A stretch of 64,000 nt of DNA from Candidatus Bathyarchaeota archaeon. Its GTDB lineage: Archaea > Thermoproteota > Bathyarchaeia > Bathyarchaeales > Bathycorpusculaceae. Below are positions 22,613 to 61,195 of this stretch, piece after piece. The DNA lies in contig CAWFFH010000003.1 of the NCBI GenBank assembly GCA_963815095.1, forward strand, positions 64,001 through 128,000. Reading direction: 5' to 3'. The position numbers were made by a program, and so were the translations under genes. The notes under the pieces are model-generated. The model was not told where the DNA came from. It worked only from the letters and a program-made list of their open reading frames with translations, and ran no database searches. Every line of letters begins with the position of its first letter. Within the stretch, counting starts at the first letter, position 1.

Positions 22613-23212
22613 TTATTCCGCATTTGCATAGAGTTCAAGCAAATCATGCTTAAAGCGTTCAGGTTCATCTTTGTAGGCTGAGTGGTTTGAACCGTCGTAG
22701 ATTATGAGTTTTGCATTGGGCAGTTTATCGGCTAGGGTTCGCATGTCTTCGCTTGTGACTATGTTATCTTGGGAGCCCCAAATTATTGTTGTTGAAAACT
22801 TGAATTGGCTGTATTTCTGCACGAGGTCTGGTTCAAGGGCTCTTGCAGGCGAAACTAACAGTAAACCCTTAACTGGAAAACATGCCGCATACCGCAACAC
22901 CATGTTGCCGCCTATACTGGCACCAACGAGTAAAGGAACGGTTGCACCAAAAACAGTTTTGACTGAATCATTTACATATGTAATGTTTTTTTCTGGATCG
23001 CGGGTTTTGGGTTGGCACTGACTCTTCAAGCCGTAAGGCATGTCTAAAGCTAGAAAAGGAATACGTTTTTTCATTAACAAATCTGTTACACCTATTCTCT
23101 GCCAAATGTCGGCGGTGTATGATAATCCGTGAAGAAAAACTATTGGAGTACCAGAAGAAGTGTAATACAAAGCCGGGCACTCGTAGCCCGCCACATTTAA
23201 TGTTTTCTCCAA
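22613..23212 (-). CDS. Alpha/beta hydrolase
   Basis: FLHG, GASIGG nucleophile elbow, WGSQD, NH. Confidence 0.88.
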
Positions 23213-40402: not shown

Positions 40403-40975
40403 TTACATATACGCTCTCAGCACATTGCTTTTCTGCAATAAGTAAAGTACGAATCCGCTTATTAGAAATTCGGGCAACAGATAGCTGCCGTTGTAGACTG
40501 TTGAGTAAACCCATGGGTTTAGGGTTGGAGCGTAGACTGGCGCCCAGAAGTACACGCCTGAAACGAAATGCATGGTGAAGCGTGCGCTGATACCGACTGC
40601 GGCTCCCACTACCGGGTGCTTAGGGAAGAAACCAGCTAATCCTAACACAGCGAACGCAAGCGGATAGTCAAGCAGCACTTGGATAATTGCATACGGAACT
40701 GGAGCGATATAGGGTAGAGCCGCGAATTGTATTAAGCCATAGATTACGCCCGCGGTTATGCCGACTTTGGGTCCGCGTCGAAGCGCCAGCCAAATAATCG
40801 GGACCATGGACGCCAAGGTGATGGAGCCGCCCTGTGGCAAGGTGTAGATGATTATGAAGCTAAGTGCGGTGGCTAAGGCAGTAAAAATCGCCAATTCAGC
40901 TAAAACTCGTGGGTTTCTAAAGGATGTTTGATATTTTTTTGATTTTTTTATGGAGTCTGGATTGTTTGTTTGCAT
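40403..40975 (-). CDS. thiT: ECF S-component thiamine transporter ThiT
   Basis: PQGGS, MVPI...RRG, QVLLDY, HFVSG, YS..YN; TPP riboswitch directly upstream. Confidence 0.93.
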   Translation of the reverse strand: MQTNNPDSIKKSKKYQTSFRNPRVLAELAIFTALATALSFIIIYTLPQGGSITLASMVPIIWLALRRGPKVGITAGVIYGLIQFAALPYIAPVPYAIIQVLLDYPLAFAVLGLAGFFPKHPVVGAAVGISARFTMHFVSGVYFWAPVYAPTLNPWVYSTVYNGSYLLPEFLISGFVLYLLQKSNVLRAYM

Positions 40976-40981
40976 TTGTTT

Positions 40982-41074
40982 TTCCCTCCGCCAGTATTAC
41001 CTGGTTCAGGTTCCTAAGGGTCGACACCAAACAGGCGTCCTCTCAGCCGAGTCATTTTCCCAGCTCCCCAAGAA
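40982..41074 (-). ncRNA. TPP (THI-box) riboswitch
   Basis: Minus strand reads TTCTT GGGGAGC...GCTGAGAG...GACCCTTAGGAACCTGAACCAGGTAATACTGGCGGAGGGAA, matching the canonical TPP aptamer; ATG lies 8 nt after GGAGGG. Confidence 0.95.
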
Positions 41075-41227
41075 CTACGGAAAATATGCGTTTCTGTAAC
41101 ATATTAGGTTTGCTAAAGCTGATTTTTCTATTTGCTGTCAAAAACCCCTGTTAAATAACAACGAGCAGGTCATGAAGCATACAGCTCTGTGGTAGACCTA
41201 CACACGCAGTTCTTACATTTCTGTATC

Positions 41228-49930: not shown

Positions 49931-52156
<2,226 letters not shown>

Positions 52157-54266: not shown

Positions 54267-54917
54267 TTAACGAAGATAACGCAGAAACCAATCAGCTGAA
54301 TACTTTGCTACCTCTTCAAGCGTGCCAGGCTCCTCAAAAAGATGCGTAGCACCAGGAACAATGACCAGTTTCTTTTCATTAGTCATTTGATCCATGGCAA
54401 GTCGATTTAATTCAATAACTTCAGTGTCCAAACCGCCTACTAACAGTAGAGTTGGCGCTACAACTTTTGGAAGGTATTCTCCTGCAAGATCAGGACGCCC
54501 TCCACGCGAAACCACCGCCACAATCTCGTCTGGAAGTTTTGCAGCTGCAATCAAAGCCGCAGCCGCCCCTGTGCTTGCCCCAAAGTACCCAAAAGCTAAA
54601 CTTTTTGTCAGAAGATCATTTCTCAGCCACTCTGTTGCTCCGATAAGGCGTTTAGCTAGTAAGGTAATGTTGAACCTATATTCAGCAGTTACGATATCTT
54701 CTTCTTCCTCTTCGGGAGTAAGAAGATCAAAAAGTAAGGTTCCGATTTTGGCTTTGTTAAATTCTTTTGCAACATATTGGTTTCTTGGGCTAAACCTGCT
54801 GCTACCGCTGCCATGGGCAAATAAAACAACTCCTTTAGCACCAGATGGCAAAGTTAATGTGCCTTCCACTATTACGTTGCCGACTGGAATTTTCATTTCT
54901 GTTTGGTTATGAATCAT
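54267..54917 (-). CDS. Dienelactone hydrolase-like alpha/beta hydrolase
   Basis: FAHGSGSSRFSPRN, GASTG, SRGGRPDLA, GATHLFEE. Confidence 0.92.
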   Translation of the reverse strand: MIHNQTEMKIPVGNVIVEGTLTLPSGAKGVVLFAHGSGSSRFSPRNQYVAKEFNKAKIGTLLFDLLTPEEEEEDIVTAEYRFNITLLAKRLIGATEWLRNDLLTKSLAFGYFGASTGAAAALIAAAKLPDEIVAVVSRGGRPDLAGEYLPKVVAPTLLLVGGLDTEVIELNRLAMDQMTNEKKLVIVPGATHLFEEPGTLEEVAKYSADWFLRYLR

Positions 54918-55585
54918 ACCACTACCGTCCTTGTTGACTTGCGCGCTGTTTGTTTACTTTCGTGTAGCAGTTTTATTACTTCTTCATCTTCAGTTTGGGA
55001 AAAATTAGAGTAGAATTCGCCTATAGCTTGGAAATATTCAGGAGTGTACAGACACACCACGCGGTCAGCTATTTCATTTAACTCTTCAATGGTTGATGGT
55101 GGACCAACTGGAATCGCAACTGTCACGCTGACGGCGCCCCTATTTTTCACTGAAGCCAATGCAGCTTTCATGGTTGACCCAGTTGCTATCCCATCATCCA
55201 CAACGATAACGTCAAGCCCTTTCAAGTTGGGGTAAGATGTATCATGTCTGTACAATTTTAGCCTGCGCTCAATTTCCCTTTTTTGTCGTGCAGTCTCTTC
55301 CTTGATATATTCTTTGCTGACGCCCAAGTAAGCGATTAAGCGATTATCAAGAATAGCTGTTCCATCTTCGGCAACGGCACCTATAGCCAACTCTGGGTTA
55401 TCAGGGGCTCCAATCTTTCGGGGAATTATTACATCGAGCGGCAGGTTGAGCACTTTAGCAATCTCGTAGCCTACAACTACGCCGCCTCTCGGAATCGCCA
55501 AAACAATCCCTTTTTTGCCGGAAAAATTCTTCAAAGAAGAAGCTAAACGCTTGCCAGCGTCAACGCGGTCAGTAAAAAAAGCCAT
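54914..55585 (-). CDS. Phosphoribosyltransferase (Rv0571c-like)
   Basis: FTDRVDAG, PRGG, RKIGAP, VDDGIATGST. Confidence 0.92.
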   Translation of the reverse strand: MAFFTDRVDAGKRLASSLKNFSGKKGIVLAIPRGGVVVGYEIAKVLNLPLDVIIPRKIGAPDNPELAIGAVAEDGTAILDNRLIAYLGVSKEYIKEETARQKREIERRLKLYRHDTSYPNLKGLDVIVVDDGIATGSTMKAALASVKNRGAVSVTVAIPVGPPSTIEELNEIADRVVCLYTPEYFQAIGEFYSNFSQTEDEEVIKLLHESKQTARKSTRTVVV

Positions 55586-55860
55586 TAAAATTCCTCAATA
55601 CCCTTATAAAATAAATAGTGAAAGGAAATATAAAAAGTGGATACCAACAATTTTTCTTTGCAAAAAGAGGTTCACATCGCTCTCAACAAGTACAAGCACG
55701 AGAGATTGAGTATTTTTCTTTCAAAAAAATTTAGCATACATGTAAAAAAAAGTGAGTTTCCAAAATTCTAAATTAAATAATTCTGTCTAATTTTGCATGC
55801 TTGAAAGGACAAAAGATAAGAGAATTCAAGCGTTCTACAAGTGTGGCACAGTGGCAACTA

Positions 55861-56790
55861 ATGGAAGTCGTAAATGTCCGTTTACCCGACAAATTAACCG
55901 CAGACATAGACAAACTAGCAAAAAAACATAACCTCACCCGATCAGAAGTCATGCGTCAAGCATTAACCATCTATCTGCACCTTACAGAAAACGTTGGCAC
56001 CATGCTAAGACCAATAGTTTTTCAAGTAAAACCAGCACAAATAACCTACACTCGCAGAGGCGATGTCTCCATCCTAAAAGTTCCCACAGGACACGCCATA
56101 GTGGTAGGCTCAACCTCAAGTGGCGCTGTTGGCCCCAAAAAAATGGACAAGGTTCAAGTGGAGGGGCAGGTGCTGGGAAAGTTTTTGGCAAGAGTTGCCT
56201 TAATGGATGTGATCGCAACGGGCGCGTTTCCACTTCTTTTGTCTGTAACGTTAGGCGTAGAAAAAGAACCCAGTGGCAACTCGATAATTGAGGGAATTCG
56301 ACGTGAAGCTAGAAGCATAGGTCTTGACGCAAATCAAGCTCTTATGGAGAACACTGAAGACAATTTTGAAACAGTACAAACCGGCGTTGGATTAACCGTA
56401 GTTGGTTTTGCAAATGATGAAGAGCTCAGGCTTGGAAAAACCATGCCGGGCGACTTAATAGTAGCAATTGGCAAACCCAAAGTTGGAGACGAAGTACTAG
56501 TCGCAGAAACACGCGGAGAAATTGCGGACCTCAAAAACGTCACACAACTATCCCAGAGAAAATATGTACACGATATTGCACCAGTTGGGGGGTTTGGGAT
56601 TGCAAGTGAAGCAAGAATGATGGCGTATGGCGTTGGGAGACAACTAAAACTCTACGAGGTGCAAGGGTTGGATTTGAGTAAGTCAGCGGGTCCAGCAACA
56701 GTTGTTCTTGCAACAATTGACAAAGAGAAGCTTGAAGATTTAACTTCGTTAATTCCTAAACCAATTAATGTTGTTGGAGAAATAATCTAA
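55861..56790 (+). CDS. Ribbon-helix-helix (CopG/MetJ) + CblS/PurM-like domain fusion, putative regulator
   Basis: MEVVNVRLP...IDKLAK...TRSEVMRQAL, then SSGAVGPK..D...ARVALM...GA, TEDNF.TVQTG.G, GKP.VG, KSAGPAT; ATG at 55861. Confidence 0.8.
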   Translation: MEVVNVRLPDKLTADIDKLAKKHNLTRSEVMRQALTIYLHLTENVGTMLRPIVFQVKPAQITYTRRGDVSILKVPTGHAIVVGSTSSGAVGPKKMDKVQVEGQVLGKFLARVALMDVIATGAFPLLLSVTLGVEKEPSGNSIIEGIRREARSIGLDANQALMENTEDNFETVQTGVGLTVVGFANDEELRLGKTMPGDLIVAIGKPKVGDEVLVAETRGEIADLKNVTQLSQRKYVHDIAPVGGFGIASEARMMAYGVGRQLKLYEVQGLDLSKSAGPATVVLATIDKEKLEDLTSLIPKPINVVGEII

Positions 56791-56798
56791 ACAAAAAT

Positions 56799-57281
56799 TT
56801 ATTTTTGAATGCTCTTTAGCATGTGCCCGTTACGGTCGATTTCTCCACTGCGAATCCGAGTGGTCGAGATAGGAGTTTTATTTTCTGCCTCTACCATGTC
56901 CACTGCGACAATTTCGAGCGGTGGCAACCCAGCTTTTCCGCGTGTTGAATTAATAGCGCCTGCCGTTCGGGCAGTTTCTTTGCTCACCACTAACGCCTCT
57001 AACCCTCTGCCCTTAATTGTCAAGCCATACGAGTCCGTTAACGGCACAATTTCAGCTCTATCGGCTAAACCCATTTCTGTCAAATAAGTGGCTAATTCAT
57101 CTCGGCGTTCAGCGTAAGACGCAGTTATGTGAGGTTTGCCCATTTTCTTGACGAACTCATCAGAAGATAAGCCTATGACAACTTTGTCTCCGACTTCAAA
57201 AGCTCTGCTGAGTAACGCTTTGTGGCCTCTATGGAGTTCATCAAAAGTTCCTCCGACTGCAACTTTCTTGTATTTTTTCAT
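56799..57281 (-). CDS. coaD: Phosphopantetheine adenylyltransferase (archaeal/eukaryal type)
   Basis: GGTFDELHRGH, YG, VVSKET, ISTTRIR.GEID. Confidence 0.93.
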   Translation of the reverse strand: MKKYKKVAVGGTFDELHRGHKALLSRAFEVGDKVVIGLSSDEFVKKMGKPHITASYAERRDELATYLTEMGLADRAEIVPLTDSYGLTIKGRGLEALVVSKETARTAGAINSTRGKAGLPPLEIVAVDMVEAENKTPISTTRIRSGEIDRNGHMLKSIQK

Positions 57282-58214
57282 TTTACCAGCCTAACGCCCT
57301 GAAAATCAATCTTGCTAACTATCACTTGTTTTGAGGGCAAGGTTTGCTTAAAAGCTTCTGCTACCGAGTAAGCGTTATTTTCATGTACGACAGCGTGAAC
57401 TGCTTCCCCAATCATGTTTTGGGCTGCACCGACCGCACCAGCCTTCTTCGCCACCGCCACCAGATCCCTTATGTTTTGGGTTGCGAACCCTGCTTTCTGC
57501 GAGAAGTCCCAGCAGCAATCAAGAAAATTCTCCAAGCTCGGCTCCGCGAGGATAGCGTCTAAGGCTTTTTTGCCGTAGCGATTTATTTCCTGCTTTTTCT
57601 TTACTGAGGAAAGGACTGATTTTTTGCGGATGTTAGTTTTAAGAAAGCCCGCGACAACCATATAATCTGGCGTAATGGGTATGCGGTCGATTTGGCAGAT
57701 GCCTGGAGCGCCAGGTTCCACAACGAGAACGCAACCACCACTAAAAGTCAAAGAACTTACCGTGCCCAAACCTGTTAGGCATTGAATCTCGGCAACATGC
57801 GCTATTTTGCCAATCTGATTATACGTTAAGGGCAACCCTAAAGCTTCTCTAAGCGCCAATCCTGCGGTTAACGCTCCTCCTGCACTGGTGCCAAACCCGG
57901 TGCCAATCGGGACTTCAATTTGATGTTCGACTGTGATAGCATAGTTTGCGTTTGTTTTGGTCAGAAGGGTCGCTATTACTTGCCTTGTGGTTTTTGCTTC
58001 GGTGACGGGTTTAGAATTAATGAAAATGTTAATGCTGTTTGTCTGTGCTTCTTCAGCGGTCGCTGTTGTTGTGACGCCTCTTTTCTAGCCCAAAACCTCC
58101 ACCTATAGCACCAACTTTCTCCAAATCAGTAATCGGTTTGCCGTCTTCGGTGTCGTGGATTTCAAAAAAGCTAGAGATTGCCGCTGGAGCGAAAGCTTTG
58201 GCGGTTTTTTTCAC
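57278..58214 (-). CDS. pok: Pantoate kinase (GHMP family), frameshifted near 58082
   Basis: GTG at 58214 gives KAFAPAAISSFF...GAIGGG; after the shift, PIGTGFGTSAGG, AHVAE, TGLG, AAQNMIG. Confidence 0.85.
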
Positions 58215-58942
58215 TGAGTTTCACTTTGGTTCTTTTTAGCTAATGTTGGAAACGCTTTGTTGGCTGCTGCAATGATTGGTGGTCCAAGGATTAGTATAAA
58301 CGGGATTTCGGTGAAGAAGGTAAAGAAAAAAGTTATCAGCGCTATAGGGGCAGTAAACGGTGTGGCAGCTTTGGTAAAGTATTGAATGAAAAGTGGTACA
58401 GTTACCCCTATTATGGCTGAGCCAAGCAACATACCAATTATTGAACCAACTTCAAAGCTGCGCCATCTCGAGTTTCTTAAAATCACTACTGGAACTAAAA
58501 ATATTACATAACTTGCTGCAACAACACTCATGAAAGCGATTTTAGTCCAGAAATCCAAACCAGTATAGGCGTAACCAATCCACATGAATAATGCCGTAGC
58601 TATGCCATAAGCTACAACAGGTGCTGCCCACCGAATTTTCTTCTTGGCTATGTACCCGATTAAGAAGAAAGCGACAAAGTTGCTAGTTACCCCTGCCAAC
58701 AGACTTAGCAACAGGTTGTTTCCAAAGATGGCATCACTTATGAAGATACCGACTGCTGCGCCGATTCCTCCAACAAGTGGACCAAACACAACGGCGAAGA
58801 CTGCGGGGACAATGACTGGAGGCCAGAATCTAACTCCGCCATACGATATTGGGATTAAGCTGTAGAAAATGTAGCCGACTGCTACATACAATGCTATGTT
58901 TAACGCTAAACCGGCAACATCGATTGATCTAAGTTTCAGCAT
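58211..58942 (-). CDS. ECF transporter S-component-like membrane protein (probably pantothenate/pantoate)
   Basis: ALY, VRFWP, FGP.VG.IG.A.G...SD; stop overlaps the pok start (GTGA). Confidence 0.75.
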   Translation of the reverse strand: MLKLRSIDVAGLALNIALYVAVGYIFYSLIPISYGGVRFWPPVIVPAVFAVVFGPLVGGIGAAVGIFISDAIFGNNLLLSLLAGVTSNFVAFFLIGYIAKKKIRWAAPVVAYGIATALFMWIGYAYTGLDFWTKIAFMSVVAASYVIFLVPVVILRNSRWRSFEVGSIIGMLLGSAIIGVTVPLFIQYFTKAATPFTAPIALITFFFTFFTEIPFILILGPPIIAAANKAFPTLAKKNQSETQ

Positions 58943-60163: not shown

Positions 60164-61195
60164 ATGGAAACTTTAGTTGACGATATTGGCAGTTTTCCGT
60201 TACCAACAGGAATCAAAAGAGAAACCTTTAGCAAGTCCTATGAACTTGCAAGAGAAGCAATCCTCGAAGGCAAGGACATAACCAAAGACGATTTTTTGCA
60301 AGAAAATTTCTGCAAAGTTGTGGTTAACTCCTTTAGGAAAAAATTGTCTACAGGCTTAGACGTTATAAATTTCCCTCAACATTATAGTGGAATCAAACAA
60401 GTTGGTGACGCAGTTCATGAAGCTATGGCGAAAGGCTCCTTTGTTGTCGACAAAGAAAAAGCATTCCTCCCCGAAATCTACGTGCTCAACCAAGAAGCCA
60501 AGCATCTGAGCGAAGAATTTGGCAAGAAAATCCAGTTGCGCGTTTCAATTTTTGGCCCCATCGAACAATATTTGGCTGAAGTCGGAACAACAGCGTTTCC
60601 AGACGTATTAGACGGGTTTGCCCAAACGATAAATCGGTTTGCCAAAAACTCTATTTTAAACAACAAATACATTGAAACCAAAGTAATTTCCATCGATGAA
60701 CCGAGCCTAGGCCACACCAACCTCTCAGCTACCCCAGATTTAATTCGTGAAACGCTCGAGAAAGCATACGACTTTCAAGGACCAATAAAACAGATTCACC
60801 TACACTTCGCCTCAGGAATACATGATTTACTCGCCGTGAAAGGTCTTGATGTTTTGTCGTTTGAGTACGCGGGGTCTCCAAAAAATATCGATGCAATCCC
60901 AAAAAGTATACTTGAAAAAGCTAACAAGCAAATTCGAGTGGGCATCTCAAGAACAGACATCGACTCTATTTGGGCGGAACTCTACGAGAAAGGCATAACC
61001 AAACCATCCAATGAACATTTAGTTGAGACGATAGAAGCGATAACAAAACGATACCGTATTGCCAAAGAGAAGTATGGAGATCGGATGACTTTTACTGGTC
61101 CTGACTGTGGACTTGGCGGTTGGCCCAATCAAGAATCAGCCGCATTGCTGCTGGAGCGCTCAGTGAAAGCTGTAAAATCAAACCTTCAATTTTAA
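60164..61195 (+). CDS. Core (single-domain) MetE-like methionine synthase family protein
   Basis: DIGSFP, GP, IDEP, HLH, E, GPDCGL. Confidence 0.75.
   Translation: METLVDDIGSFPLPTGIKRETFSKSYELAREAILEGKDITKDDFLQENFCKVVVNSFRKKLSTGLDVINFPQHYSGIKQVGDAVHEAMAKGSFVVDKEKAFLPEIYVLNQEAKHLSEEFGKKIQLRVSIFGPIEQYLAEVGTTAFPDVLDGFAQTINRFAKNSILNNKYIETKVISIDEPSLGHTNLSATPDLIRETLEKAYDFQGPIKQIHLHFASGIHDLLAVKGLDVLSFEYAGSPKNIDAIPKSILEKANKQIRVGISRTDIDSIWAELYEKGITKPSNEHLVETIEAITKRYRIAKEKYGDRMTFTGPDCGLGGWPNQESAALLLERSVKAVKSNLQF

Follow-up and report, generated by a model that had tools for sequence, protein, structure and literature searches.

Positions 55861–56790 of a 64,000-nt stretch of DNA from a Candidatus Bathyarchaeota archaeon (contig CAWFFH010000003.1; this whole stretch is called the window below) encode a protein in which a ribbon-helix-helix (RHH) DNA-binding domain is followed by a domain that resembles the alpha-ribazole kinase CblS. 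What does an enzyme-like domain do on such a protein: is the fusion an enzyme, a regulator or both, and which genes would it control? We give a probability of about two in three to the reading that it is an autoregulated transcription factor: it would control how much alpha-ribazole phosphate is supplied, with a pseudo-kinase domain as its sensor of alpha-ribazole or of the phosphorylated form. Computation shows how the protein is built, what it is homologous to, which residues the whole class has lost, that the operator is conserved in two archaeal phyla and which genes are linked to the fusion gene. That the protein binds DNA, that it has lost activity, which effector it senses and whether its targets are repressed or activated are what we infer. 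Overall, the sequence comparisons support the view that the fusion stands for a family of archaeal regulators, widely distributed and so far uncharacterised, for which an operator and a regulon are defined.

An RHH domain joined to a CblS-like domain

The listed open reading frame (ORF) at this locus, 55801..56790(+), begins with a TTG codon, and the ATG at 55861 gives a protein of 309 aa (P0001). We take this ATG to be the right start because the closest 120 database homologues, which are 85–90% identical to the fusion protein, are nearly all 309 aa long, and because promoter elements lie within 55801–55860. The gene boundaries given in the first-pass annotation, 55861–56790, are thus retained.

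That annotation had also proposed an N-terminal RHH domain, and Pfam RHH_1 matches residues 4–39 (E 2e-8, 34.4 bits against a cut-off of 20.5). In an AlphaFold monomer model, helices at residues 10–22 and 27–43 follow an extended N-terminus. By its profile match the protein would belong to the ribbon-helix-helix (CopG/MetJ/Arc) superfamily. Across an alignment of 10 diverse fusions R7, S28 and R32 are invariant and N5 is nearly so, and this invariance fits a conserved operator. NCBIfam gave only sub-threshold matches for the fusion protein: an aCcr1-type RHH model (30.3 bits, cut-off 60), SelD (21 bits) and ThiL (16 bits). A sequence search of solved structures with the single protein returned just the antitoxin EndoAI, at E 0.79, and a profile search of the PDB returned nothing at E ≤ 0.01, with weak partial PurM/ThiL alignments at E 0.02–0.3. 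Two RHH assignments were ruled out. The aCcr1 cell-cycle regulator scores half of its cut-off and an additional domain of 250 aa is present here, and the type II RHH antitoxins (VapB/RelB/BrnA) score 13–19 bits against cut-offs of 50–60, with no toxin-like neighbour.

The AlphaFold model of the fusion protein, built from a 134-sequence alignment, has a mean predicted local distance difference test (pLDDT) of 94.5, and its C-terminal part is compact alpha/beta. With this model Foldseek found SelD, ThiL, HypE and PurM at E 1e-15 to 1e-11, and PurL too; the top match was SelD 3u0o (E 1.4e-15, TM 0.62). Pfam places an AIRS N-domain (AIR-synthase-related) over residues 70–156 (26.1 bits, cut-off 24). 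The modelled C-terminal domain thus has the two-domain PurM fold of the PurM (AIR synthase-related) superfamily. Neither Pfam nor NCBIfam gave a match to a CblS-specific model. Many homologues carry the JGI labels ‘ribosomal protein S8’ or ‘selenophosphate synthetase-related protein’; the S8 label is backed just by a weak NCBIfam match (14.7 bits) and looks like a propagated annotation error.

The link to CblS comes from paralogues and gene order. The genome from which the window is taken (G000, 2.69 Mb) has a second copy without an RHH domain, of 258 aa, encoded 1.2 Mb away at C3:1336056-1336832; it is 39% identical to the fusion over fusion residues 65–308 and has the motifs RD, ACDS and GSTEKN. 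Its gene overlaps by 4 nt the end of a gene for a 181-aa membrane protein (ECF S-component PF12822, E 6e-15), and we read the pair as a CblT–CblS arrangement. A tblastn search of a plasmid collection with this paralogue gave seven records. On pMF1298-5 of Lactiplantibacillus plantarum, the gene for the CblS homologue is flanked by an ECF-S gene on one side and by cobS and a histidine phosphatase gene on the other; an excerpt of PMC6722938 names the genes of this plasmid as homologues of CblT, CblS, CobS and CobC. In a Listeria record the CblS-like gene is immediately 5′ of cobU-cobS-cobC. By BLASTP against the L. plantarum protein, the fusion is 30% identical over 230 aa (E 1e-29) and the paralogue 32% identical (E 4e-35). 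CblS itself is described, in the excerpts of PMC6461909 and PMC6167548, as an alpha-ribazole kinase and the partner of the CblT transporter. These identities and the PurM fold bear out the proposed CblS-like second domain, and they indicate that the fusion protein is homologous to CblS proteins encoded beside cblT, cobS and cobC.

Family-invariant residues lost in the fusion class

To define the class, cluster representatives were searched exhaustively with HMMER, which gave 495 relatives at E ≤ 1e-3. The alignment holds P0001 and 133 of the best 150 of these 495; the 17 dropped sequences fell outside 225–330 aa (fragments or long fusions). With one representative per 50%-identity cluster, the comparison is between 122 stand-alone proteins and 12 rows that a script classed as fusions. 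True RHH fusions number 11: nine match RHH_1, one matches the RHH-like DUF6290, and one is an entry cut at its N-terminus whose full-length cluster mate matches RHH_1. The twelfth row, P0207, has an N-terminal extension without an RHH match and retains the Asp at position 85.

Stand-alone relatives have the motifs CDS and RD where the fusion has GSTS (with T85) and RRGD. At position 85, 120 of the 122 stand-alone proteins have Asp, whereas all 11 RHH fusions have Thr, Ser or Ile. Ser at position 164 is equally frequent in the stand-alone set (120/122) and is Asn, His or Asp in the fusions. Position 116 is Glu in 121/122 stand-alone proteins, and Asp (5), Lys (5) or Glu (2) in the 12 fusion-classed rows; position 244 is Ser in 120/122 and variable in the fusions; position 250 is Glu in 121/122, and about half of the fusions retain it. 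P0001 itself has T85, D116, N164 and G244 and retains E250. Measured against the Asp of CDS, Glu116, the Ser of GSTExN, Ser244 and Glu250, the fusion would not pass as a CblS, and it was not classed as a CblS enzyme because the loss of family-invariant residues is class-wide. In the PurM superfamily such an Asp is a metal ligand, and the Asp at position 85 would have this role.

The first-pass annotation had listed three altered motifs. GSTS and ENTEDN are in the sequence, with xxTS in 118 and ENTEDN in 116 of the closest 120 homologues, and the losses of D85 and S164 extend to the whole class. The change from Arg to Gly does not: position 67 is Arg in six, Gly in five and His in one of the 12 fusion-classed rows.

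A quick, unrooted IQ-TREE tree of the C-terminal domain puts the 11 fusions on one side of a branch (SH-aLRT 91), and the fusion branch splits into a Thermoproteota/Asgard-type and a Halobacteriota-type subgroup. Together with the residue changes, this topology fits one ancient fusion that may have been followed by relaxed catalytic constraint.

Cobamide genes and a palindrome at the fusion loci

Among the sources of the fusion clusters are Bathyarchaeia, Methylarchaceae, Asgard Wukongarchaeota, Methanophagales (ANME-1), Methanomethylicota, Methanohalarchaeum and the cultivated Methanonatronarchaeum thermophilum, whose homologue is WP_086636853.1; the lineages with a fusion gene also include Methanoliparia, Methanonatronarchaeia and Methanomethylicia. 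In a class sample of 301 genomes including G000, a match at E ≤ 1e-10 was obtained for 43. The fusion is present in 24 of these (22 full-length and two cut by contig ends), and the other 19 have the stand-alone form only.

In 10 of 23 related Bathyarchaeia loci, an operon of cblT-like and stand-alone cblS-like genes is divergent from the fusion gene. The intergenic region is 50–90 bp in nine of these, and in the other there is an extra ORF between. At two further loci among the 23, from another genus, the divergent gene is an archaeal-type cobT (TIGR00303, 406 bits, cut-off 240), followed by the gene for a membrane protein of ∼200 aa. A pattern scan of GTDB genomes with a 4-sequence alignment biased to Halobacteriota-type fusions added 29 euryarchaeal loci from ANME-1, Syntrophoarchaeum, Methanolliviera, Methanoliparum and Methanohalarchaeum. 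No cblS or cblT gene was found within 3 kb of the fusion gene in these 29. Bacterial-type cobT (PF02277, E down to 1e-138) is near the fusion gene in 10 of them, a gene for a radical S-adenosylmethionine (SAM)/SPASM protein that NCBIfam names CbpB (TIGR04163 ‘rSAM_cobopep’, 556 bits) in 8, a trpD-like gene (TIGR01245, 260 bits) in 12, and cobQ in one. At least one of cobT, cbpB, the trpD-like gene and cobQ lies within 3 kb in 22 of the 29, and four of the other seven have less than 250 bp of upstream flank.

The cbpB gene, found upstream of the fusion gene at L054, L055, L056, L062, L070, L072, L075 and L076, lies between the regulator and bacterial-type cobT in ANME-1, Methanolliviera and Methanoliparum. 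At the 12 loci with a trpD-like gene, this gene takes the place of cbpB or accompanies cobT.

The common denominator of cblS and both types of cobT is their product, alpha-ribazole 5′-phosphate. A transcription factor with the same regulon could instead sense another ligand, such as the free lower base, nicotinate mononucleotide (NaMN), a complete cobamide or corrinoid, or ATP/ADP. Its putative targets include cobT, cobQ, trpD-like and transporter-like genes besides cblS, and sequence alone does not reveal which ligand a diverged PurM-fold pocket prefers. We nonetheless think a different ligand unlikely, since the domain is specifically a CblS-like paralogue (30–39% identity) that reaches only 16–21 bits with the ThiL, SelD and PurM models of NCBIfam, and since alpha-ribazole phosphate is the product shared by the three enzymes.

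We then considered the promoter of the fusion gene. An imperfect palindrome of the type GTATTACA-NN-YGTAGTGY, with a consensus of about GTATTACA-NN-TGTAATAC, lies 10–13 nt before the fusion start and 9–11 nt past an ATAAAAG/TTTAAAT element at essentially all Bathyarchaeia loci (Table 1 gives the copy in the window). A regular expression found it at 21 of the 29 euryarchaeal loci, at 20 of them directly before the fusion gene, and two more loci have a variant. Its position between a TATA-like element and the fusion start is also seen in ANME-1, Methanoliparum and Methanolliviera. The pattern was absent from all six loci that have a stand-alone cblS only.

The 2.69 Mb of G000 hold exactly two copies of the strict pattern GTWYTACANNYGTRRYRY and none of a reversed-pattern control. 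One is at the promoter of the fusion gene itself. The other, at C3:1335444-1335461, is upstream of cblT-cblS: a TTTTTATC box follows it after 11 nt and the cblT start after 53 nt. Allowing one mismatch gave two more sites in G000, with an equal count for the control; these sites, at C3:356686 and C3:1131782, both fall within long ORFs and were rejected as operators. In five sister genomes a looser pattern marks eight distinct sites, five before the fusion gene and three before a membrane-protein gene. The operator signal in the sister genomes is thus in the placement of the sites, not in their number. Within the window there is also a near-palindrome at 22969–22986 (+), CATTTACATATGTAATGT, which resembles the ANME-type operator with two mismatches and lies inside overlapping ORFs; this stringency is at chance level.

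The three membrane-protein sites lie 57–70 nt before orthologues of one membrane protein of ∼200 aa, and the G000 orthologue has a 2-mismatch palindrome 12 nt before TTTTAT. The protein is a candidate transporter of the lower ligand or of alpha-ribazole. Members of its family (at L078 1492-2106, which is G000 C3:1252506-1253120, at L046, L047 and L048, and at L012 3624-3926) have no Pfam or NCBIfam match. Its Atlas features lie near QueT/ECF-S clusters (0.92–0.93), which we treat as a lead only, and its predicted structure has a pLDDT of 59 (4-sequence alignment).

The first-pass annotation had also placed the gene convergent with a coenzyme A (CoA) operon and near a MetE-like gene. Both are present; they seem unrelated to the function of the fusion and, by the pattern scan of the window, have no operator. 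The convergent PPAT/pantoate kinase neighbour does recur, always convergent, in 12 of the 23 Bathyarchaeia loci. This conservation, together with weak RHH matches to antitoxin families such as the EndoAI hit in the PDB, could be taken to mean that the fusion has nothing to do with cobamides and is a CopG protein of an antitoxin-like or plasmid type, or else regulates the convergent CoA genes. We regard that as very improbable. There is no toxin partner gene, and the CoA genes, being convergent, are not co-transcribed with the fusion gene. The window has no exact operator match beyond the fusion gene's own promoter, and its 2-mismatch matches are at chance (8 found, 10.1 expected). The CoA neighbour is found at none of the 29 euryarchaeal loci, where cobamide genes recur.

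Other observations count against a regulator of alpha-ribazole phosphate supply as we have described it. The looser pattern gave nine hits in the sister genomes and its reversed control also gave nine; the related genomes are not independent; and the pattern was derived from own-promoter sites, so that the only independent finds are the cblT site of G000 and the three membrane-protein sites. At three euryarchaeal loci with sufficient flank (L058, L061 and L071) the palindrome and cobamide neighbours are both absent. For most genomes of the window's genus, which do have the fusion, a search at E ≤ 1e-10 gave no stand-alone cblS, and cblS is therefore not a universal target. The name ‘CblS’ of the Lactiplantibacillus gene is itself based on homology. 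Finally, D68, D96, E166, N168 and T174 are retained in the fusions and, given these family residues, the fusion may have residual kinase activity.

The retained residues and G-rich loops, and the genomes that carry the fusion without a stand-alone cblS, would suit a bifunctional enzyme-regulator. Such a protein would be an active alpha-riboside kinase with Thr or Ser in place of the lost Asp and would control transcription as well, in the manner of RbkR, for which an excerpt of PMC8305020 reports both functions. This seems rather improbable to us. The positions D85, E116, S164, S244 and E250, each 98–99% conserved, have been replaced, and differently so by lineage, a pattern that fits relaxed catalytic constraint. 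Moreover, an intact cblS adjoins the fusion gene in the 10 Bathyarchaeia loci described above, where a second kinase would be redundant. The reading of the fusion as a transcription factor with a pseudo-kinase sensor, which was also that of the first-pass annotation, thus draws its support from the cblT-cblS paralogue, the gene linkage, the palindrome and the class-wide loss of the Asp.

Proposed mechanism, known systems and neighbouring features

We propose that the RHH domain binds the 18-bp palindrome, probably as a dimer or a dimer of dimers in which the PurM-fold domain joins the subunits. The fusion gene has the operator downstream of its TATA-like element and ahead of its start codon, and binding there would block initiation. 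Autorepression is likely because this is the usual position for archaeal repressors. The ATAAGAG element is presumed to function in this promoter. At the putative target promoters the palindrome lies 11–12 bp upstream of a TTTTAT box, just 5′ of the TATA box and TFB recognition element (BRE). Binding there could repress the target by occluding the BRE, or activate it by favouring transcription in its direction.

The targets would be genes that supply alpha-ribazole 5′-phosphate, the activated lower ligand of cobamides. In G000 these would be the cblT-cblS salvage operon and the QueT/ECF-S-like membrane protein gene with its 2-mismatch site. Elsewhere in archaea they would be cblT-cblS, archaeal cobT with the membrane protein, bacterial-type cobT with cbpB, and the trpD-like gene. 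The sensor domain, a paralogue of CblS, most likely no longer turns over substrate, having lost the Asp and other invariant residues. It probably still binds alpha-ribazole or alpha-ribazole phosphate, perhaps together with a nucleotide, and would tune DNA binding in response. Feedback by the product, alpha-ribazole phosphate, would explain why the salvage and cobT routes are both targeted; induction of the salvage operon by its substrate would agree with the data just as well.

Where the genes are divergent, a single AT-rich box appears to be shared by both directions. A more tentative proposal, in which we place less belief than doubt, is that the fusion, which would be conserved together with its operator in Thermoproteota, Halobacteriota and probably Asgard archaea, plays for the lower-ligand branch the part that the B12 riboswitch plays in bacteria, and that it acts as a direction switch at a shared, symmetric TATA box. 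The palindrome-bound protein would shut its own gene, for which the operator is downstream of the TATA box. It would at the same time steer or recruit the initiation complex to the divergent salvage or cobT operon, for which the operator is just upstream of the BRE/TATA.

Several known systems resemble parts of this scheme. CblS of the Firmicutes (Listeria innocua, Geobacillus kaustophilus), where it is paired with CblT, has a homologous PurM-fold domain and shares the linkage to cobamide nucleotide-loop genes. The fusion differs from it in having an N-terminal RHH domain, in lacking the near-invariant Asp, in probably not being an enzyme, and in being encoded divergently from cblT-cblS, not within the operon. 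The archaeal vitamin regulators ThiR and RbkR join a DNA-binding domain to an enzyme-derived one, which is ThiN-like in ThiR and a riboflavin kinase in RbkR. They are like the fusion in combining a DNA-binding domain with a domain derived from a pathway enzyme, in being encoded beside pathway genes and in having palindromic operators. They are not homologous to it, their domains being a winged helix with ThiN or a CTP-dependent kinase, whereas those here are an RHH domain and a PurM fold, and their pathways differ from the cobamide lower-ligand pathway of the fusion.

NikR, MetJ and PutA are RHH regulators with a ligand-binding or enzyme domain and with palindromic operators that overlap the promoter. 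The fusion is similar in that a C-terminal domain would receive a small-molecule signal for an RHH module; the sensor is a different one, a PurM-fold pseudo-kinase in place of the ACT-like nickel domain of NikR, the SAM-binding RHH body of MetJ or the proline dehydrogenase of PutA. In bacteria, B12 genes are controlled mainly by riboswitches. The predicted control of cobamide salvage, transport and nucleotide-loop genes is shared with the cobalamin riboswitch, which is an RNA that senses the finished cofactor, whereas the fusion is a protein whose predicted signal is an intermediate of the lower ligand. The window and seven related loci gave no match to a cobalamin riboswitch.

To our knowledge, the control of B12 genes in archaea is largely unknown. 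In the lineages that carry the fusion, cobamides have a central role in methanogenesis, in the anaerobic oxidation of methane and alkanes and in acetogenesis-like metabolism. For these lineages, the present analysis offers a concrete candidate transcription factor together with the exact sequence of its putative operator and a few named targets. It also points to unannotated members of the proposed regulon, namely the ∼200-aa membrane protein, the trpD-like gene and the radical SAM gene cbpB, which may fill missing steps in the uptake or activation of the lower ligand. The RHH domain with a PurM-fold pseudo-kinase would be a new domain combination among enzyme-derived regulators and, if the reading is true, a new kind of B12-pathway regulator present in many archaea, with a logic like that of ThiR and RbkR. 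The RHH–kinase fusion has already been noticed at the level of annotation, as one GenBank entry is named ‘CopG/MetJ family transcription regulator fused to thiamine monophosphate kinase-like ...’. A search of the full-text literature, which mostly does not cover subscription journals, found no study of an RHH–CblS fusion among the papers listed.

Table 1. Features of the fusion gene and its promoter (window coordinates)
Feature	Position	Strand	Basis or remark
TATA-like element ATAAGAG	55816..55822	+	9 nt upstream of the palindrome; aligns with ATAAAAG/TTTAAAT of relatives
18-bp imperfect palindrome GTTCTACAAGTGTGGCAC, candidate operator	55832..55849		11 nt 5′ of the ATG
RHH–CblS-like fusion, coding sequence	55861..56790	+	309 aa plus stop
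Ribbon-helix-helix DNA-binding domain, residues 1–45	55861..55995	+	Pfam RHH_1, alignment, model helices
Flexible linker, residues 46–60	55996..56040	+	block pLDDT 62–66; residues 50–53 below 50
PurM-fold CblS-like putative sensor (pseudo-kinase) domain, residues 61–309	56041..56787	+	Foldseek, paralogue identity
T85 codon, at the family's near-invariant Asp (CDS motif)	56113..56115	+	class comparison
ENTEDN, residues 163–168	56347..56364	+	GSTExN in stand-alone CblS-like proteins; S164 replaced, E166 and N168 kept

On the divergent side of the regulator, the window has at 54267–55585 (−) a pair of genes, one for a 223-aa protein with a type I phosphoribosyltransferase domain and one for an alpha/beta hydrolase with weak matches to dienelactone hydrolase. 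The pair is found at none of the 23 related loci and looks like a local insertion that displaced cblT-cblS. It was rejected as a target on account of this absence and of its distance of 247 bp from the operator.

On the convergent side, the pantoate kinase gene at 57278–58220 (−) is split in two frames, 58053–58220 (the N-terminal part) and 57278–58084. Its relatives are single ORFs of 310–330 aa, and the split is a frameshift, due either to a sequencing error or to the gene being a pseudogene. Directly upstream of, and overlapping, the pantoate kinase–PPAT genes is a gene at 58211–58942 (−) for a 243-aa membrane protein with a sub-threshold ECF S-component match (26.9 bits, cut-off 30.7), which may be a pantoate or pantothenate uptake component of the CoA operon. 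The MetE-like protein, of 343 aa, is encoded at 60164–61195 (+) and reaches 228 bits with the ‘methionine synthase’ model NF004712, below the cut-off of 387.

Further away, a thiamine pyrophosphate (TPP) riboswitch, which scores 61.4 bits with Rfam RF00059 (gathering score 54.3), is at 40966–41080 (−), directly upstream of a 190-aa ORF (40403–40975) and a 332-aa ORF. A 725-aa ORF at 49931–52108 (−) resembles catalase-peroxidase (KatG) by eye; it lies in the sole 2-kb bin with a G+C content of 0.54, in surroundings of ∼0.43, and was possibly acquired horizontally.

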